Of a stretch of DNA of 14,807 nt, positions 5,371 through 14,807 are shown piece by piece. The stretch covers positions 1-14,807 of the forward strand of contig CAYHPG010000010.1 of the NCBI GenBank assembly GCA_964358625.1, given 5' to 3'. Below the pieces are notes generated by a model. The model worked only from the letters and a program-made list of their open reading frames with translations. It had not been told where the DNA came from and searched no databases. Every line of letters begins with the position of its first letter. Positions within the stretch are counted from its first letter, which is position 1. The stretch is from an uncultured Gammaproteobacteria bacterium (GTDB taxonomy: Bacteria; Patescibacteriota; Patescibacteriia; JACQSD01). The position numbers and the translations under genes are program-made.

Positions 5371-5412
5371 CTGTCTTCACTGTCTTCACTGTCTTCACTG
5401 TCTTCACTGTCC
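5371..5412 (+). repeat. tandem repeat, 9-bp unit ctgtcttca x4 plus partial ctgtcc, ending immediately at the cysS ATG
   Basis: Read directly: ctgtcttca at 5371, 5380, 5389 and 5398, then ctgtcc at 5407-5412, then ATG at 5413. Confidence 0.92.
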
Positions 5413-6852
5413 ATGCTTCGTTTTTACAATACATTAACTCATAAGAAAGAAGTATTCGTACCGATGCGCGAAGGACGCGTCGGTCTTTATACCTGCGGGC
5501 CGACCGTCTACAACTACGCGCACATCGGTAATTTGCGTACGTACATTTTTGAAGATGTGCTTCGACGCGTGCTTGAATACACAGGATTGCATGTCACGCA
5601 CGTCATGAATATAACGGATGTAGGGCACCTCACGTCAGATGCAGACACCGGTGAGGACAAAATGGAGAAGGGCGCGCGGCGAGAAAAGAAAACCGTCTGG
5701 GAAATTGCGCAATTCTATACCGACCTTTTTAAAAAAGATATGGCAGCGCTTCATATTAAAGAGCCGACGATTTGGTGCAAGGCGACGGATCATATCAAAG
5801 AGCAAATTGATCTTATAAAACGCCTCGAAAAAAAAGGCTACACCTATACGACCCAAGACGGCGTCTATTTTGACACATTAAAATTTCCATCGTACGGAGC
5901 GCTCGCGCAATTAAATGTGAAAGGACAAAAAGCTGGTGCACGTGTAGAGATGGTGAAGGGTAAAAAAAATCTTGCGGATTTCGCGCTGTGGAAGTTCTCA
6001 AATCCGAATGGTAGTCCTTCGACGGGCTCAGGACATCTGCCGAGGCGGCAGATGGAATGGGCTTCTCCATGGGGAAAGGGCTTCCCCGGCTGGCATATTG
6101 AATGCAGTGCCATGGCGATGAAATATCTCGGCGAAGAGTTTGATATCCATACCGGTGGCATCGACCATATCCCGGTGCATCACACGAACGAAATCGCGCA
6201 AAGCGAGGCGGCAACAGGGCACGCGTTCGTGCGCTACTGGCTCCACGGAGAATATCTCATCGTCAATAGTCCCCCTCTTCATGTAAGAGGGGCAGGGGGA
6301 GTTATTGAAACTAAAATGGCGAAATCCGGAGAAAATTTCACGAGACTCCAAACGCTCACCGATCAACGCCACGATCCCCTCGCCTACCGATATTTCGCGC
6401 TCACCGCACACTACCGAAAACAACTCACCTTCTCATGGGAAGCGCTTGAAGCAGCGGAACAAGGACTAAAAAATCTTCGCGAACGACTTTTTGAAAGTGG
6501 TAATACAATTGGAGAACTCCCGAATACGATCAAGAAAAAATTTGGTGCAATCATCGGCAATGATCTCGATATGCCAAAAGCGATCGCATACCTCTGGGAA
6601 ATCGTCAAATCAAAAAAGTCGGGAGCCATAAAACGCGCCGCGGCGCAAGAATTCGATAAAATTTTCGCCCTAGATCTTCTTGCACACAAAGCCGAACCCG
6701 TACCGGAGCATGTGATGATTCTCGTGCGCGAACGCGAAGACGCGCGAAAAAATAAAGAGTGGCAAAAATCCGACGACCTGCGCAAACGCATCCTCGAGGA
6801 AGGGTGGGTTGTGGAGGATACTTCCCAAGGCTCGCATGTGAAGGCCGTTTGA
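5413..6852 (+). CDS. cysS: cysteine--tRNA ligase
   Basis: LYTCGPTVYNYAHIGNLRTY (HIGH motif), WHIECSAM, and KMAKS (the KMSKS motif). 479 aa. It carries two short GC-rich insertions (see repeat features). Confidence 0.95.
   Translation: MLRFYNTLTHKKEVFVPMREGRVGLYTCGPTVYNYAHIGNLRTYIFEDVLRRVLEYTGLHVTHVMNITDVGHLTSDADTGEDKMEKGARREKKTVWEIAQFYTDLFKKDMAALHIKEPTIWCKATDHIKEQIDLIKRLEKKGYTYTTQDGVYFDTLKFPSYGALAQLNVKGQKAGARVEMVKGKKNLADFALWKFSNPNGSPSTGSGHLPRRQMEWASPWGKGFPGWHIECSAMAMKYLGEEFDIHTGGIDHIPVHHTNEIAQSEAATGHAFVRYWLHGEYLIVNSPPLHVRGAGGVIETKMAKSGENFTRLQTLTDQRHDPLAYRYFALTAHYRKQLTFSWEALEAAEQGLKNLRERLFESGNTIGELPNTIKKKFGAIIGNDLDMPKAIAYLWEIVKSKKSGAIKRAAAQEFDKIFALDLLAHKAEPVPEHVMILVREREDARKNKEWQKSDDLRKRILEEGWVVEDTSQGSHVKAV
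6014..6054 (+). repeat. in-frame GC-rich insertion in cysS: diverged copy of the PSTSSGQ 22-mer followed by a 9-bp-stem hairpin
   Basis: gtccttcgacgggctcaggaca (6014-6035) matches the reverse complement of the dnaK/grpE 22-mer at 17 of 22 positions and encodes SPSTGSGH. catctgccg-agg-cggcagatg (6034-6054) is an inverted repeat whose right arm encodes the RQM of the ..RRQMEWASPWG.. stretch, which I take to be native sequence. Confidence 0.6.
6268..6303 (+). repeat. in-frame hairpin insertion in cysS directly before KMSKS (encodes SPPLHVRGAGGV)
   Basis: cccctctt (6272-6279) catgt aagagggg (6285-6292) followed by caggggga. It has the same architecture as the intergenic CCCTC..GAGGG hairpins at 6971-7018, 9357-9379, 9427-9447 and 9851-9871. 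Confidence 0.6.
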
Positions 6853-6855
6853 TTT

Positions 6856-6913
6856 GTCATTGCGAGGCCGAATATTCCCCGAGCGAAGTCGAGGGGGCGG
6901 CCGAAGCAATCTC
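6856..6913. repeat. GC-rich repeat of the gtcattgcgag...gaagcaatctc type, with an embedded cgagcgaagtcgag motif
   Basis: It begins 4 nt after the cysS stop. It shares gtcattgcga and caatctc with the element at 8118-8188. The internal cgagcgaagtcgag (6880-6893) recurs in the hrcA leader (13091-13102, 13115-13124). Confidence 0.55.
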
Positions 6914-6970: not shown

Positions 6971-7018
6971 TAACCCCACCCTTCCTCCCCTTATATAAGG
7001 GGAGGTGAGGAGGGGTTA
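6971..7018. repeat. 48-bp imperfect palindrome (core cctccccttatataaggggagg) upstream of dus
   Basis: taacccc..cctcccctta|taaggggagg..ggggtta. The outer 7 bp and the inner 10 bp of the two arms are perfectly complementary. Confidence 0.7.
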
Positions 7019-9286: not shown

Positions 9287-9330
9287 TTATTAACGAAACA
9301 CGAATGTATAACCTCCTCTCCCCTTGTGGG

Positions 9331-9472
9331 CTGTGAATTACGAAACTCTCTTTATTCCCTCTCCCTCAATGGGAGAGGGTTAGGGTGAGGGTGGAAATAA
9401 GGGGCTTTACACACCCTCCCCTTTGTCCCCTCCCATCAAGGGAGGGGAAAACCGGAGTTTCGTAATTCACAG
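9331..9472. mobile_element. MITE-like non-autonomous element, 142 bp, perfect 18-bp TIRs, 8-bp flanking direct repeat
   Basis: The TIRs are ctgtgaattacgaaactc (9331-9348) and gagtttcgtaattcacag (9455-9472). The direct repeat cttgtggg lies at 9323-9330 and 9473-9480. Internal hairpins are ccctctccc-tcaat-gggagaggg (9357-9379) and cccctccc-atcaa-gggagggg (9427-9447). There is no ORF. Confidence 0.7.
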
Positions 9473-9485
9473 CTTGTGGGAGAGG

Positions 9486-9833
9486 TTAGGGAGAGGGGAA
9501 AAGATGTTTATTAATTTCCTCACCTACTCCTTCGATATTTTTCAAAACATCATTATTCCAAAAACGGAGCACCGTAAATCCTTGATTCCGTAACCATTGA
9601 TCCCGCACTTGGTCTTTCAACGTATGTGTTTCCTCTGCATGTTGCCCGCCATCAAGTTCAATAACAATTTTTTTAGCGAAACAAACAAAATCAACAATGT
9701 AATCTCCAATAATCTCCTGTCGTCTAAATTTTAGTCCATGAAACTGTTTTGCTCTCAGATAATGCCACAACAATTTTTCTGCTTCGGTGGAATTTTTTCT
9801 AAGGTCTTTGGCAAAAGCAATGAGATGCTTCAT
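9486..9833 (-). CDS. DUF559 endonuclease-domain protein (Vsr-like restriction endonuclease fold), 115 aa
   Basis: From ATG 9833: MKHLIAFAKDLRKNSTEAEKLLWHYLRAKQFHGLKFRRQEIIGDYIVDFVCFAKKIVIELDGGQHAEE..RDQWLRNQGFTVLRFWNNDV. This is the characteristic DUF559 pattern. The longer ORF-track start (9902) would overlap dnaK and reads through a repeat. GGAGG lies 7 nt upstream of the 9833 ATG. Confidence 0.85.
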   Translation of the reverse strand: MKHLIAFAKDLRKNSTEAEKLLWHYLRAKQFHGLKFRRQEIIGDYIVDFVCFAKKIVIELDGGQHAEETHTLKDQVRDQWLRNQGFTVLRFWNNDVLKNIEGVGEEINKHLFPSP

Positions 9834-9850
9834 ACGACACCCTCCCCTCA

Positions 9851-9871
9851 CCCCTCCCATAAAGGGAGGGG
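9851..9871. repeat. hairpin repeat cccctccc-ataaa-gggagggg between the dnaK stop and the DUF559 start
   Basis: Read directly. It belongs to the same family as 9427-9447. The adjacent cctcccctca (9841-9850) completes the family's tail motif on the minus strand (tgaggggagg). Confidence 0.65.
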
Positions 9872-9873
9872 GA

Positions 9874-11739
9874 CTACTTCTTCTCCTTAAAATCAGCGTC
9901 AATCACATCACCAGACTTTGCGTCCTTTTTGTCATCATCTTTCTGCCCTGAGCTTGTCGAAGGGTTCGTTTTTTCCGCTTCCGCCGCGGCTTTATATAAA
10001 TCCCCGCCCACCTTCTGAATCGCCTCACCCAAAGCATCAACCGCTTTGCGCAACGCCGCCGCGTCACTGCCGTCTTTTGCCTTTTTCACCTCGACAATTT
10101 TTTCCTCAATCGGTTTCTTCACATCATCCTTCACTTTGTCGCCCGCGTCTTTCAATGTCTTCTCGGTCGTGTGAATAAGCGCATCCGCCTGATTGCGCAA
10201 ATCAATGAGTTCCTTCTTCTGCCGATCCTCGGTTGCATGCAGTTCCGCCTCTTTTTTCATCTTCTCGATTTCCTCTTTTGAAAGCGCGGAAGAATCTTTA
10301 ATCGTAATGTGCTGCGACTTCGCCGTTGCTTTATCTTTCGCGGTCACCGTCAAAATTCCGTTTGCATCAATGTCAAATGTCACTTCTACTTGCGGTACAC
10401 CACGCGCCGCCGGAGGAATGCCGTCCAAAATAAATCGCCCAAGCGTACGATTATCGCTCGCCATCGGCCGTTCTCCTTGTAATACATGAATCTCCACCGA
10501 AGTCTGGCTGTCCGCGGCCGTTGAAAATACTTGTGACTTCGATGTTGGAATCGTTGCGTTGCGCTCGATTAAGGGTGTCGAAACTCCACCCATTGTCTCA
10601 ATACCAAGTGTCAACGGCGTCACATCGAGCAAGAGCACGTCTTTTACGTCACCGGAGAGCACCGCCGCTTGCACTGCCGCGCCTTTTGCGACGCATTCCA
10701 TCGGATCCACCCCGCGCTCAATTTTCTTCCCGATAAAATCTTCCACGAATTTCTGGACAATCGGCATGCGCGTCGGACCACCGACCATAATCACTTTTTC
10801 GATTTTTGCCGGCGTCAACTTCGCGTCCGTAATTGCCTGCTCCATCGAATGACGGCATCGCTCCACGATCGGCTTCACAAGATCTTCCAATGTTGCGCGC
10901 GTCATCTTCATCGTCATGTGCTTCGGGCCGGATGCATCAGCGGTAATAAACGGCAAGTTGATTTCCGTTTCGAGTGTCGAAGACAATTCAATTTTCGCCT
11001 TCTCTCCTGCTTCTTTCAAGCGTTGCATTGCCATCGAGTCCTTACGCAAATCAATCCCTTCTTTTTTCTTAAACTCATCAGCGATATAGCCAATCATAGC
11101 GTTATCCATGTCCGTACCCCCGAGTTGCGTGTCTCCGGATGTTGATTGCACTTCAAAAACCCCTTCACCAAAATTCATGATCGTCACATCAAGTGTGCCG
11201 CCACCAAGATCAAACACCAGAACCATCTGATCTTTCTTGCCCTTTCCTGTTTTATCAAGACCATAGGACAACGATGCCGCGGTCGGTTCATTAATAATAC
11301 GCACGACTTCAAGACCAGCGATTGCGCCTGCATCTTTTGTTGCTTGGCGCTGTGCATCATTAAAGTACGCAGGAACGGTAATCACTGCTTTTTGTACTGG
11401 TTCACCCAAAAAGCTCTCCGCATCACGCTTGATTTTTTGCAAAATAAACGCGGAGATTTGTTGTGGCGTGTATTCTTTGTCGCCGATTTTCCACTTGAAA
11501 TCCGTTCCCATCTTCCGCTTTGCGGCGTAGATAGTGCGATCCGGGTTTGCCACAAGCTGACGCCGTGCGGGCTCACCAACTAAAAGTTCACCTTCTTTCG
11601 TAAACGCCACATATGAAGGGAACGCCTTCCCTCCAAGTGTTGCCCCTTCCGCAGACGGCACAATCACAGGACTATCGCCCTGCATGACCGCGGCCGCTGA
11701 ATTAGATGTTCCTAAATCGATTCCAATAATTTTGCTCAT
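9874..11739 (-). CDS. dnaK: molecular chaperone DnaK (Hsp70)
   Basis: [20 protein letters not shown] and a full-length Hsp70 architecture. 621 aa. Confidence 0.97.
9944..9965 (-). repeat. 22-mer tgccctgagcttgtcgaagggt inserted in the dnaK C-terminal tail (encodes PSTSSGQ)
   Basis: It is identical over 22 nt to 11930-11951 in grpE. It is in the same orientation relative to the host gene and in the same reading frame. Confidence 0.85.
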
Positions 11740-11748
11740 AGAAAATCT

Positions 11749-11816
11749 TGAAACTCGTATCCTGAAACTTGAAACTTAGATTGAGTACAGGTTACAAGTT
11801 ATAAGTTATAAGTTAT
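11749..11816. repeat. short tandem or dispersed heptamers in the grpE-dnaK spacer
   Basis: tgaaact at 11749, 11763 and 11770. aagttat x3 in perfect tandem at 11796-11816. Confidence 0.6.
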
Positions 11817-11820
11817 TTTT

Positions 11821-12381
11821 TTATTCTGCAATAATAACTTTTGGCGTAACAAACGATTTTCCGTGGAGCGTATAGCCCACACGCACTTCTTCTATAATCG
11901 TATCCGGTTCAATCTTTTTACTCTGCGCTTGCCCTGAGCTTGTCGAAGGGTCGATGGGCTTCTTTTTCCCTACCACTTCATCATGCATCGGGTCAAACTT
12001 TTTGCCCATCACGTCCATTCGCGCGACACCTGCTTTCTTCATAAAATCTTCAAAGCTCTTTTTTACTTGCGCCATACCCTTACCCCATGGCGTCTCTGCA
12101 ACTTCTTTTGGCATCTCCGCGCACGCTTTCATGAATGCTTCATACGTTGGTAGTAAGTCACGAAGAGTGCTCGTAACGGCAAAGATAATAAAATCAGTCC
12201 GTTGCCGCTCGATATCTTTCTCGCGATTCACAAAATCCGCTTTCGACCGCTTCCATCCGGTCAAATATTCATCTGCCTTCTTCTGGCATTTCTCCAATTC
12301 TTCTCGAAGCTTCTGCGCTTCTGGAGATTCAATTAATTTTTCCTCCGGCTGTTCAGATAAAAGTGCGTTAGTCATTGCCAT
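11821..12381 (-). CDS. grpE: nucleotide exchange factor GrpE
   Basis: 186 aa, lying between hrcA and dnaK. It has a coiled-coil N-terminus, then ..LLPTYEAF.., ..FDPMHDEVV.. and ..VRVGYTLHGKSFVTPKVII. Confidence 0.9.
   Translation of the reverse strand: MAMTNALLSEQPEEKLIESPEAQKLREELEKCQKKADEYLTGWKRSKADFVNREKDIERQRTDFIIFAVTSTLRDLLPTYEAFMKACAEMPKEVAETPWGKGMAQVKKSFEDFMKKAGVARMDVMGKKFDPMHDEVVGKKKPIDPSTSSGQAQSKKIEPDTIIEEVRVGYTLHGKSFVTPKVIIAE
11930..11951 (-). repeat. 22-mer tgccctgagcttgtcgaagggt inserted in grpE (encodes PSTSSGQ)
   Basis: Identical to 9944-9965. It lies between the FDPMHDEVV segment and the C-terminal beta domain. Confidence 0.85.
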
Positions 12382-13075
12382 ATTTCGTTATAATTTCTCG
12401 CGCATATTTTGCGAGCGCGATGTTTGCTGCATAATCCATACGCGTCGGGCCTAAAATTCCAAAAAGTTGATCTTCGTCTTTCCCGTATCGCACAACCACC
12501 ACGCTTGTGTCGTTACCAAACGGATTTTCATCACCAATGGCAACCGCAAAATCATCGTGCACGGATGTGGCAAACTCTGCCATCGTCTCATCAAGACGGT
12601 CAAACACATGCGACATCGTTAATGCAAGATCGTGATCGGAAAATTCCGGTTGTGCGAGGAGATACGACAGCCCCGTATAATAGACATCGTCAGACGTAAA
12701 TCCGACAAGAATCGCTTCATGCGCCACCTCCGCAACAACTCGTGCAAGTTCCTTTACGCGGAGTCGTTTATTTTCAAAACTTTTTATGCATCGTTCTTCA
12801 ATCGTCTCCCGTTCTTTCTTTGCAAGTGGTTTTTCTGCGAGACAATGTGTCACATAATACCGATATCCTTTTATCGTCGGCACGCGGCCGGCAGAGGTAT
12901 GCGGGTGCGTCAAATATCCTTCCTCTTCAAGCGCCGCAAGTGCATTGCGTACCGTTGCTGAACTTACGGAAAGTCCATATTTCCCTGCGAGCAATTTCGA
13001 ACCAACGGGCTCTGCTGTCCGTATATGTTCTGCGACTACCGCTTCCAATAATGCCGCTTTTCTCCCTTCGAGCAT
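12368..13075 (-). CDS. hrcA: heat-inducible transcription repressor HrcA (short form, about 235 aa)
   Basis: The N-terminal winged helix has the HrcA signature: EPVGSKLL..LSVSSATVRNALAALEEEGYLTHPHTSAGRVPTIKGYRYYV. The C-terminal motif GPTRMDYAANI is present. I place the start at ATG 13075; the ORF-track start at 13081 is a TTG. The 3' end overlaps the grpE start by 14 nt. Confidence 0.88.
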   Translation of the reverse strand: MLEGRKAALLEAVVAEHIRTAEPVGSKLLAGKYGLSVSSATVRNALAALEEEGYLTHPHTSAGRVPTIKGYRYYVTHCLAEKPLAKKERETIEERCIKSFENKRLRVKELARVVAEVAHEAILVGFTSDDVYYTGLSYLLAQPEFSDHDLALTMSHVFDRLDETMAEFATSVHDDFAVAIGDENPFGNDTSVVVVRYGKDEDQLFGILGPTRMDYAANIALAKYAREIITKYGND

Positions 13076-13088
13076 AAGCAAAGTATTC

Positions 13089-13150
13089 TTCGAGCGAAGT
13101 CGCGCTTAGCGCCACGAAGTCGAGAAGTGCCTAAAAATGCAGTTCTCGAC
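13089..13150. repeat. GC-rich repeat and hairpin cluster in the hrcA 5' leader
   Basis: cgagcgaagtcg (13091-13102) and cgaagtcgag (13115-13124) are shared with 6880-6893. There is an 8-bp stem gtcgagaa (13119-13126) / ttctcgac (13143-13150). Confidence 0.5.
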
Positions 13151-13164
13151 AGGCTCGAACGATA

Positions 13165-13191
13165 TTAGCACTCGCTATCCGAGAGTGCTAA
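13165..13191 (-). promoter_or_regulatory. CIRCE operator (HrcA binding site), perfect consensus
   Basis: TTAGCACTC-gctatccga-GAGTGCTAA is an exact 9-N9-9 inverted repeat. It lies 4 nt downstream of the -10 box of the hrcA promoter. Confidence 0.95.
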
Positions 13192-13254: not shown

Positions 13255-14655
13255 ATGTCACAATCACACGCCGACACATCACTTTGGGAAAAAGATCAAG
13301 TATTCTTGAAGGAAGAACGCGAAAAACACCCAGAACTCTTCATGCGGGAAGCAGGTGATCCGCATGTACTCCTCACTCGTATTGGTGTCACCGCACTCCC
13401 CAAAAGTCTTCCAAAAGGATACTTGCGTTTTTCCCCGTTTGATTTTCTTGTTGAAGAAATTCGAAAAAATGGAAACCCCGTCGCGCTCGATGGGAAAGAT
13501 GTAGTTCCAGAAGCCGGAAACGCAGGCGACACGATCTATGCCGATTGCATAAAAGTCGGAATCTCCACTCTTGATGCGGCACAACGTATTGCCGATGCGC
13601 TTAGCATCCCACCGCAAAAAATCGGCTATGCAGGCATCAAAGACGCAGTTGCCATTACCGCCCAGCGCGTGAGTATTCGCAATGCTTCACGTGAAAAGGT
13701 TCAAGCGCTCTCACTTGCCAATATCCTTCTTCGTAATATCACAACGGGCAAAGGCGCCGTGAGCGTTGGCGAGCTTGGCGGCAATCGCTTTACGCTTTTC
13801 ATTCGCACCGAACGCCGCCTCGATACGGCGCATCTCGCAAATCTCCTTACGCATTACGAAAAAATGGGGTTTGTGAATTACTACGGCACGCAACGCTTTG
13901 GCACTCCCCGCTTTCTCGCGCATCTCTTTGGCATGTATCTTCTCCGCGGCGATCTTCCTTCACTTGTCCGCGCATATCTCACCGCAGAAAGCCAGTTTGA
14001 ACTCCCGGCAATACAAAAAGTACGACAAGAGGCAGCAGCGCATTTTGAAGACTGGCAGAAGATGTATGGCGCGTTCGATCGACTCCCCTACACCTTCCGT
14101 TTCGAGCGCATTATGCTCGACACGCTCATGAAAACAAAAAATGACTACGCGAAAGTCATTGTTGCTATGGGTGATCAGGCGGATCTTTGGGCGCGCGCAT
14201 ACGCAAGCTATTGCACAAACCGTCTTCTCTCGCACGCCATCACAACGAAACAAGAACTACCAAAAGAACTCCCCTTGCTCCTTTCTGTGCGCAAAGAAGA
14301 TCACGCGCCCTACCAGTCATTTCTTGCGGCAGATAAAACGGAAAAATTCACCGAAATTTTGAAACGATTTCCGTTTATTCATCTTGGCAATGCACCAAAA
14401 ATAGAAGCGCGCATGCTTCCAAAGGTGCATGGCGTGCGTGTGGTGAAGGAAGGCGTTGCCATTGCATTTGATCTTGGCAAAGCTGCATACGCAACAACAT
14501 TCCTCCTTCACCTTTTCACGATCATAACCGGTACACCAATTCCCGATTGGGTGCAGGATACGGAATATGACACAAAAGAATTGCTCGGGCTTGGGTCGTT
14601 AGAGGCAATAAAAGAGAAATTGGGAAAGTACATTAATAAGCCTGTGTCATCCTGA
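13255..14655 (+). CDS. truD: tRNA pseudouridine synthase TruD/Pus7 family (long form, 466 aa)
   Basis: SPFDFLVEEI (the N-terminal PEDF-V-E motif), GYAGIKDAVAITAQRV (the catalytic GxKD..A.T.Q motif) and NYYGTQRFG. The last codons and the stop lie inside a repeat. Confidence 0.88.
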   Translation: MSQSHADTSLWEKDQVFLKEEREKHPELFMREAGDPHVLLTRIGVTALPKSLPKGYLRFSPFDFLVEEIRKNGNPVALDGKDVVPEAGNAGDTIYADCIKVGISTLDAAQRIADALSIPPQKIGYAGIKDAVAITAQRVSIRNASREKVQALSLANILLRNITTGKGAVSVGELGGNRFTLFIRTERRLDTAHLANLLTHYEKMGFVNYYGTQRFGTPRFLAHLFGMYLLRGDLPSLVRAYLTAESQFELPAIQKVRQEAAAHFEDWQKMYGAFDRLPYTFRFERIMLDTLMKTKNDYAKVIVAMGDQADLWARAYASYCTNRLLSHAITTKQELPKELPLLLSVRKEDHAPYQSFLAADKTEKFTEILKRFPFIHLGNAPKIEARMLPKVHGVRVVKEGVAIAFDLGKAAYATTFLLHLFTIITGTPIPDWVQDTEYDTKELLGLGSLEAIKEKLGKYINKPVSS

Positions 14656-14671
14656 GCGAGAGCGAAGGATC
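14646..14671. repeat. repeat of the gtcatcctgagcgagagcgaaggatc type, spanning the truD stop codon
   Basis: Read directly. The TGA at 14653-14655 lies inside the motif. The motif is related in form to gtcattgcgag..(6856, 8118). Confidence 0.55.
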
Positions 14672-14677
14672 CCCTGA

Positions 14678-14781
14678 CTGTGCATTACGAAACCCCCTTT
14701 TATATCCCCTCTCCCTCGATGGGAGAGGGTAGGGTGAGGGTGAAAATAGGGAGGGGAAAATCGGAGTTTCGTAATTCAAAG
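14678..14781. mobile_element. second, degenerate and internally deleted copy (104 bp) of the MITE-like element
   Basis: The TIRs are ctgtgcattacgaaac (14678-14693) and gagtttcgtaattcaaag (14764-14781), each one mismatch from copy 1. It shares the interior ccctctccc-tcgat-gggagaggg-t-agggtgagggtg (14707-14741). It lacks about 40 bp corresponding to 9401-9440 of copy 1. Confidence 0.6.
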
Positions 14782-14807
14782 CCCCTTGCTACGTGTATGA
14801 GATCCCT

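Follow-up and report, generated by a model that had tools for sequence, protein, structure and literature searches.

In-frame copies of a short hairpin repeat in the dnaK and grpE genes of a Patescibacteria bacterium

In a 14,807-nucleotide contig from an uncultured bacterium (CAYHPG010000010.1, GenBank assembly GCA_964358625.1; the whole stretch is called the window here), the chaperone genes dnaK and grpE share an identical string of 22 nucleotides, to which an earlier note, made from the sequence alone, had drawn attention. The host is an Uhrbacteria-like bacterium of the candidate phyla radiation (CPR, Patescibacteria), and the GC content is 47%. The question raised by this locus is how two genes came to hold the same 22 letters in the same reading frame: by insertion of DNA, by exchange between the two genes, or by selection for a peptide in both proteins. 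Here, we report that both segments are DNA insertions belonging to a family of short hairpin repeats, and that they are likely to be tolerated passengers in the proteins that carry them.

Results

The same 22 nucleotides in two chaperone genes

The plus-strand string TGCCCTGAGCTTGTCGAAGGGT was matched exactly at 9944-9965 and at 11930-11951 (22/22 identical), and no third match was found in the window when up to 3 mismatches were allowed. Two matches to the 22-mer occurred in none of 200 shuffles, and the chance expectation for such 22-mer pairs was about 1e-5. Identity between the two copies ended at the borders of the 22-mer and the flanks were unrelated, exactly as the earlier note had described them. 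Since dnaK and grpE both lie on the minus strand, the printed string TGCCCTGAGCTTGTCGAAGGGT is the antisense one, and in gene sense both genes read ACCCTTCGACAAGCTCAGGGCA; with the strand so corrected, the shared orientation, codon phase and PSTSSGQ peptide claimed in that note were borne out. The first base of the sense 22-mer is codon position 2 in both genes, because its distances from the dnaK and grpE start codons, 1774 and 430, each leave a remainder of 1 when divided by 3, and the translations are N-PSTSSGQ-K in DnaK and D-PSTSSGQ-A in GrpE.

An assembly or binning artefact, e.g., a mis-join induced by the repeat, has to be considered for a single 14.8-kb contig of a metagenome-assembled genome (MAG), as short repeats can confuse de Bruijn assemblers. 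We nevertheless hold such an artefact to be very improbable, since the reading frame of each gene runs on unbroken on either side of its copy, and independent assemblies carry related copies at the dnaK site (locus L131) and in the grpE loop (loci L127 and L128).

Close orthologs lack the inserted segments

The alignment of orthologs proposed in the earlier note revealed that the 22-mer segment is absent from GrpE of 7 close orthologs at 74-85% identity, for which the DNA of the empty site was inspected, and these proteins read ...KRKEEGKKSD... where the window GrpE has ...KKKPIDPSTSSGQAQSKKIEPD.... In an AlphaFold model of GrpE (mean pLDDT, predicted local distance difference test score, of 83), the segment falls in a loop between strands 135-140 and 161-167, with residues 149-154 scoring below 50, and alignment to the solved Geobacillus GrpE (4ANI) placed a 12-residue gap at the insert. 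The insert was also absent from three DnaKs at 96% identity (P0040, P0041 and P0043), which read ...AEKAKGGDEKKDDKK... at its position. The DnaK copy had been placed correctly in the C-terminal tail, a region that proved hypervariable in length and composition among 120 listed homologs. The tails of three Patescibacteria DnaKs (P0100, P0072 and P0150) contain stretches like SSAKASEDK, ASRPYGAG and SAQGGSASGG, which look as if repeats of other GC-rich families had been translated there, and this suggests that the DnaK tail serves quite generally as a landing pad.

A third in-frame copy was found in cysS, where comparison with the L129 ortholog (85% protein identity) showed a clean 18-nt insert. 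This variant encodes SPSTGS in the same PST frame as the dnaK and grpE copies, with the TTCGAC strand as sense. Together with a 36-nt insert of a second hairpin family in cysS, four in-frame hairpin inserts are thus present across three essential genes (dnaK, grpE and cysS) within 15 kb. The repeat inserts measure 18-24 nt and add 6-8 residues. The coordinates of all these features are collected in Table 1.

Table 1. Positions of the hairpin repeat copies, their host genes and related features in the window
Feature	Position	Strand	Basis or remark
cysS, host gene of two hairpin inserts	5413..6852	+	L129 ortholog carries PF01406
Third in-frame copy, variant GTCC-TTCGACGGGCTCA-GGAC, in cysS	6014..6034	+	18-nt insert versus L129 CysS
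Second-hairpin-family insert in cysS (CCCCTCTTCATGTAAGAGGGG...), in frame, encoding PLHVRGAGGVIE	6274..6309	+	comparison with L129
Intergenic relative CCCC-TCGACTTCGCTC-GGGG, downstream of cysS	6877..6896	-	
dnaK, host gene	9874..11739	-	PF00012
dnaK copy of the hairpin repeat core, ACCCTTCGACAAGCTCAGGGCA, (N)PSTSSGQ in the DnaK C-terminal tail	9944..9965	-	exact match, translation
grpE, host gene	11821..12381	-	PF01025
Right half (AGCGCAGAGT) of the older grpE copy	11920..11929	-	corresponds to GCGGCTCAGGGT in L127
grpE copy, identical 22-mer, same codon phase, (D)PSTSSGQ in the GrpE beta-domain loop	11930..11951	-	exact match, translation
Left half (GCCCATCGAC) of the older, decayed grpE copy, overlapping the first two 22-mer bases	11950..11959	-	L127 alignment
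Intergenic relative GTTC-TCGACAGGCTC-GAAC, hrcA 5' leader, just downstream of CIRCE in gene sense	13142..13160	+	
Canonical CIRCE (TTAGCACTC-N9-GAGTGCTAA), upstream of hrcA	13165-13191		0 mismatches
TGTC-tagged unit TGTC-ATCC-TGAGCGAGAGCGAA-GGAT-CCC	14645..14673	+	

The same DNA is read in different frames in other proteins

The 20-base core of the 22-mer, CCCTTCGACAAGCTCAGGGC, is open in five of its six frames, and a stop is met only in the GCCC-TGA... frame. Seven Pfam-verified genes elsewhere contain the exact 20-mer. It is read as PSTSSGQ in a Saccharibacteria M17 peptidase and beta-CASP nuclease, a Lentisphaerales FAD oxidoreductase and a phage portal protein, as LRQAQGK in a Saccharibacteria PolX and in the linker of a Calditrichaceae E2 acyltransferase, and in antisense, as RPELVEG, in a Burkholderiales HsdR. 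Close variants occur, elsewhere in the tail, in the DnaKs of two other Parcubacteria, one variant (TCCTTCGACAAGCCAAGGACAGGCTC) matching the subfamily consensus at 22 of 26 positions and the other being TCCTTCGTCCCGAGCTCAGGCC. With in-frame copies in verified genes of CPR bacteria, other phyla and a phage, in-frame colonisation of genes is less rare outside Rickettsia than had been supposed. The PST frame was used in 8 of 12 verified in-gene copies (P about 6e-4 versus one in five, in a sample that is not uniform), and this excess likely reflects a selection filter for small polar residues.

Could PSTSSGQ instead have been selected at the protein level, separately in each chaperone, for instance as a flexible linker or a site of modification? 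Its residues are small and polar, its positions are a loop in GrpE and a tail in DnaK, and its frame is shared by all three window genes and by most of the verified cases, as such a feature would have it. However, a peptide kept throughout the clade in divergent codons was not what we observed: close orthologs are devoid of PSTSSGQ, the two copies agree at 22/22 nucleotides with no synonymous differences, and other proteins read this DNA as LRQAQGK, PFD... or RPELVEG. This explanation is largely refuted, and we assign it a minimal probability. As judged from the sequences, the dnaK and grpE 22-mers are insertions at the DNA level and not products of convergent protein evolution, because close GrpE and DnaK orthologs lack the segment and the same string is read in other frames elsewhere. 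To this extent, the earlier proposal of insertion or gene conversion rather than convergence stands; its other parts, conversion and recency, fared differently, as described below.

The 22-mer belongs to a hairpin unit with a covarying stem

Comparison of the family members revealed that the unit consists of a 13-nt module of invariant sequence, TGAGCYTGTCGAA, and a 4-bp stem that closes it and covaries, and that a typical unit reads CCGTTC-NNNN-TGAGC(C/T)TGTCGAA-N'N'N'N' on the strand carrying TGAGC. Covariation was evaluated on 81 distinct units that had not been selected by stem, being partner units near ascertained hits. Stem positions flanking the module paired in 90.7% of cells versus 61.4% in shuffles (0/500), 87 stem cells were changed on both sides versus 31 in shuffles, and controls with slid partners gave 29-45% pairing. 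Stem types included GGGC/GCCC, GTGC/GCAC, GTGG/CCAC, ACCC/GGGT and ATCC/GGAT, among others, and an unbiased phage sample yielded more of them, with the module and the GAACGG tag constant.

CCGTTC stood 5' of most units, and on the other strand 70 of 141 copies were followed by GAAC. A few family units, which are a minority, carried a TGTC tag together with a stem starting with A, and a second subfamily, which has no tag, ended in ...GGGCA(A/G)GC; the grpE copy matches this ending exactly (GGGCAAGC), and the dnaK copy shares its first A only. The units often formed inverted doublets with the tags outside, an arrangement common in proteobacterial loci. Full units folded at -17 to -21 kcal/mol (z of -4 to -5).

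The TGAGC strand is antisense to all three window host genes, and on this strand the window copies are preceded 5' by TTTCT (dnaK) and CGCTT (grpE). By inspection, the 13-nt loop could extend the stem via U-A, tandem G.A/A.G and G-C pairs, in which case the TGAGC strand would be the structured one, and TGAGC was weakly favored as the folded strand by G:T pairs outnumbering A:C pairs (18 versus 10, P about 0.09).

Other designs for the unit were rejected. A miniature inverted-repeat transposable element (MITE) with TGAGC.../...GCTCA terminal repeats and a 4-bp target duplication suits the GGGC...GGGC doublets, and it was discarded because it fails where the left stem differs (L017: GTGG versus GGGC). 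The doublet as one long hairpin was dismissed as well, the stems covarying locally within each unit and not between partner units. By inspection, none of tRNA T-loop or D-arm, hammerhead core, CsrA site, sequencing adapters and CIRCE (controlling inverted repeat of chaperone expression) fits. A generic scan of the loci for related variants of the loop mostly reflected ascertainment and was not informative.

In three comparisons of filled and empty sites (dnaK; cysS, window versus L129; grpE, L127 versus L132), the right stem half GG(G/A) matched a GGN already present in the empty site. Microhomology at the junction, a stem copied from the target, or chance in loops rich in glycine may account for this coincidence. 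A consistent target-site duplication was not detected in the flanks or in the filled versus empty sites of dnaK, grpE and cysS, and the flanks of the units showed mixed short direct and inverted repeats of no fixed length.

A hairpin in a heat-shock operon might also be a cis-acting RNA or DNA signal (for mRNA processing or stability, as a thermosensor, or as a protein-binding hairpin) recruited into hrcA-grpE-dnaK. Both the window and L128 indeed have family-type hairpins immediately following CIRCE in the hrcA leader, and a 13-nt module that is exact across phyla suggests recognition by something. Such a role is nonetheless quite improbable, given that the element is absent from grpE, dnaK and the leaders of the closest relatives (the hrcA-leader hairpins are missing from L129, L132 and L133), that the window copies fold in mRNA sense at -3.4 and -7.2 kcal/mol (z about 0.3), i.e., no better than shuffled sequence, and that the same element occurs in unrelated genes and in intergenic DNA of many taxa. 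Rfam gave no match in the window, and a permissive Rfam scan of 9700-12500 returned three matches (E 0.09-6.8), none overlapping either copy. No Rfam family was found in 18 loci with full units, except one tRNA.

The core recurs letter for letter across phyla and phages

Using one genome per species, we located the 20-base core at no fewer than 120 loci, versus about 1 expected by chance. Among the matches listed, the record titles fell into about 18 phylum-level groups, which include Alpha-, Beta- and Gammaproteobacteria, Actinomycetota, Acidobacteriota, Chloroflexota, Armatimonadota, NC10, Saccharibacteria, groups of the Planctomycetes-Verrucomicrobia-Chlamydiae (PVC) assemblage, Chlamydiota, Bacteroidota and Ignavibacteria, Calditrichota, Campylobacterota, Thermodesulfobacteriota, Gemmatimonadota, Eremiobacterota, Saganbacteria and others. 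The same listed matches comprise cultured isolates (Microbacterium, Microlunatus, Sphingomonas, Sphingopyxis, Pelomonas and Moraxella) and some genomes with 2 loci each. The exact 22-mer was present in 6 phage contigs, and the 15-base core was likewise matched in phage contigs among the matches listed. A full-text literature search with the DNA strings and the peptides of all frames returned nothing relevant, and nothing relevant was found in the literature on MITEs or repetitive extragenic palindromes (REPs) in CPR or Patescibacteria.

Tandem arrays of the core were noted in L080 (7515-7606), L042 (3786-3953) and L019 (5456-5475), including a 24-nt period repeated at least 5 times in an Actinomycetota MAG and copies spaced by 37 nt in a betaproteobacterial MAG.

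This distribution bears on whether the two window copies were made alike by local gene conversion or template switching between grpE and dnaK, which lie 2 kb apart in one operon, so that their identity would be homogenisation and not the mark of two fresh insertions. The 22/22 identity had been read in the earlier note as a sign of recent insertion or gene conversion, but both copies simply equal the repeat consensus, whose 20-base core is identical in at least 120 unrelated genomes, and therefore their identity needs no local donor. Moreover, the homology available for conversion is just 22 nt between unrelated flanks. Two observations speak for an exchange: the window dnaK has a pristine copy where the L131 ortholog has a half-decayed one, and beyond the 20-base core the two window copies agree at one further base on either side, although the 3' A among these belongs to the common ...GGGCA(A/G)GC subfamily ending. 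On balance, we consider local conversion unlikely.

Related copies at the grpE and dnaK sites of orthologs

The window grpE reads CCCATCGAC[CCTTCGACAAGCTCAGGGCAA]GCGCAGAGT, in which an older copy of the repeat is split by the 22-mer. In the L127 ortholog (62% identical), the same site holds one related copy, CCCTTCGACGCGGCTCAGGGT, read as PFDAAQG, and the L128 ortholog has another variant, CCTCTCGACTCCGCTCGAGG, in the same loop, such that three lineages carry three different variants in one GrpE loop. From this arrangement, the window grpE copy looks like a fresh copy nested in the center of an older one. Onion-like nesting of the form TTCGAC[unit]CTCAGG was observed in 6 of 141 phage hits versus 0.05 expected, and also at several genome loci.

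The dnaK of L131 (96% protein and 83.5% nucleotide identity) carries AACCCTTCGACA followed by GCAGAGGCGCAA at exactly the position of the window copy; its left half is identical to the window copy and its right half is decayed. Thus, the insertions cannot simply be called recent, as they had been, when the grpE copy is nested in an older one and a half-decayed copy occupies the same dnaK site in L131.

Genomic context and other repeats in the window

The closest cluster of the window GrpE contains a protein named Candidatus Uhrbacteria, and the matches of its DnaK are from Parcubacteria, Uhrbacteria and other Patescibacteria. L129, a 655-kb NCBI contig, shares the gene order truD-hrcA-grpE-dnaK-dnaJ-dus-cysS-corA with the window. 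CIRCE lies behind a TTGACA...TATAGT promoter and is conserved in four related loci. The open reading frame (ORF) at 13255-14655 takes its stop codon from the TGA of the TGAGC module in the TGTC-tagged unit, and therefore its last residues are repeat-encoded. Within the hrcA leader, the minus strand at 13088-13127 reads CTTCTCGACTTCG-TGGCGCTAAGCGCGA-CTTCGCTCGAAG, which resembles a further unit of the family type with a small GC hairpin breaking it up.

The second hairpin family (CCCCTC...GAGGGG) is found at 6274-6309, 9427-9447, 9851-9871 and 6971-7018, one copy lying directly after the dnaK stop in a terminator-like position, and a PLIKGEGGG stretch in the L129 Dus is similar to the second-family cysS insert PLHVRGAGGVIE. 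A MITE-like element is present in two copies, at 9328-9473 (146 nt) and 14678-14784 (106 nt), with terminal inverted repeats of 32-34 nt (CTGTGAATTACGAAACTC / GAGTTTCGTAATTCACAG); the 40 extra nt of the longer copy are the left arm and loop of a CCCCTCCC...GGGAGGGG hairpin, beside a pre-existing AGGGAGGGG. Directly upstream of the cysS start codon, at 5371-5406, is a perfect 9-nt tandem repeat, CTGTCTTCA x4.

Discussion

The explanation that we favor, and regard with fair confidence, is that the dnaK and grpE copies are tolerated in-frame passenger copies of a short, REP- or MITE-like hairpin repeat. Copies would be written into DNA at permissive spots, here a loop on the GrpE surface, the variable DnaK tail and a CysS loop, either by a trans-acting enzyme or by a recombination or template-switch process that favors hairpin loops, those of earlier copies among them, and selection would then filter them by site and frame. 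The inserts could survive because five of the six frames are stop-free and the frame used gives small polar residues (PSTSSGQ). We infer that they are neutral, i.e., that they probably do nothing for the chaperones.

Several observations weigh against this explanation. The window copies of dnaK and grpE bear no CCGTTC, GTAG or CGTC tag and have a stem of 3-5 bp only, and therefore they are core fragments and not full units. Fourfold-degenerate sites differ at 48% between the window and L131 dnaK genes, and the probability that a neutral 20-mer stays unchanged on one branch between them is about 8e-4; the perfect dnaK copy is therefore no simple old neutral relic and needs to have been re-inserted, converted from another copy, or constrained. 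The reuse of one GrpE loop by different variants might be a sign that the site is targeted and not just tolerant. The analysis found no mobilising enzyme, target-site duplication or excision allele, a genome-wide search for RAYT (REP-associated tyrosine transposase) genes not having been made, and the copy count covers 14.8 kb of this genome.

A broader reading would take the units, TGAGCYTGTCGAA plus a free 4-bp stem, for an undescribed and essentially pan-bacterial superfamily, generated by an active, broadly conserved and possibly host-encoded process of insertion or conversion directed at hairpin loops, and not by lineage-specific transposition of the RAYT type. It is prompted by the letter-identical copies in about 18 groups and phages, by insertions that recur in the loops of older copies and at the same loops of proteins, and by pristine copies at old sites. 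We put it forward tentatively, as a possibility with the probabilities rather against it. If true, such a process would quite generally supply the essential proteins of CPR bacteria with short peptide inserts.

The in-frame colonisation of essential genes by palindromic repeats, best known from Rickettsia, is at work in CPR/Patescibacteria as well, where the targets of an element of about 20 nt include the core chaperones GrpE and DnaK plus a tRNA synthetase. The peptide strings PSTSSGQ, LRQAQGK, PFDKLRA, ALSLSKG and PELVEG become readable as translations of one DNA repeat, and such repeat-derived peptides matter for annotation, for the filtering of spurious ORFs and for alignment-based phylogeny. 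The letter-perfect core, the nesting and the reuse of sites point to a mechanism that makes or maintains such hairpins.

Comparison with known repeat systems

Di Nocera et al. (2013, PMC3733652) distinguished two superfamilies of REPs by their tags, GTAG and CGTC, and described mostly head-to-head dimers, stems that differ by complementary changes, and some REPs inside genes, in loops or termini, in several phyla. The same paper describes the CGTC REPs as present in 5 phyla and having no dedicated transposase, with the mechanism left open. Their stems measure 8-9 bp and begin with AT, their loops are 4-5 nt long and they have a CCA tail; RPE-4 and RPE-6 of Rickettsia are counted among them (PMC3733652). 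The present family is like REPs in its short palindromic stem-loop unit, unpaired 5' tag, covarying stem, doublets with the tags outside, intragenic copies and occurrence in several phyla, and at the level of the family, with a 4-bp covarying stem and folding of the full unit, it agrees with a palindromic stem-loop of 20-40 bp. It departs from REPs in the tag, which is GTAG, or CGTC with the variants TGTC and CCTC, in REPs, whereas the window copies are untagged and most units carry CCGTTC, and it departs from CGTC-type anatomy in its 4-bp free stem, 13-nt module and want of a CCA tail. Kinship with the CGTC superfamily, by analogy with the published description and not with consensus sequences, is plausible because a minority of units, including that at 14645-14673 in the window, carry a TGTC tag.

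Rickettsia palindromic elements (RPEs) are presented in PMC10969869 as selfish palindromic DNA that lies in frame in unrelated, often essential genes, at fold-compatible positions, and as measuring about 150 bp (Ogata et al. 2000, 2002, as summarised there and in PMC3733652). The comparison with these elements drawn in the earlier note is apt in kind, intragenic RPEs and REPs being documented in PMC3733652 and PMC10969869, but not in size, the element here being about 20 nt instead of about 100-150 nt. The likeness lies in the in-frame inserts at fold-tolerated sites in dnaK, grpE and cysS and in the seven verified genes elsewhere; the differences, as compared by description, are inserts of 18-24 nt, a CPR host, and a core found across many phyla and phages.

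ERIC, Correia, BOX and cyanobacterial MITEs are non-autonomous and can fuse in frame with host ORFs and contribute residues (PMC10969869), and the repeat described here is likewise found inside genes, to which it adds residues. MITEs differ in being about 100-400 bp with terminal inverted repeats and target-site duplications, whereas no duplication of fixed length accompanies the present units, and a design of terminal inverted repeats plus a 4-bp duplication fails on units such as L017.

REPINs are inverted doublets of a short hairpin repeat that are able to fold into a longer hairpin. In the REPIN-RAYT system, reportedly the subject of work by Bertels and Rainey in 2011 and Nunvar et al. in 2010, REPINs are said to be lineage-specific and co-inherited with a RAYT gene that they flank. 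The inverted doublets of this family in Proteobacteria resemble REPINs, but its core is identical across phyla and it has no GTAG head. Relative to these known kinds of element, the novelty here lies in an element of very small size, a CPR host with chaperone genes as targets, a core that is letter-perfect across many phyla and in phages, copies nested in copies, and sites used more than once.

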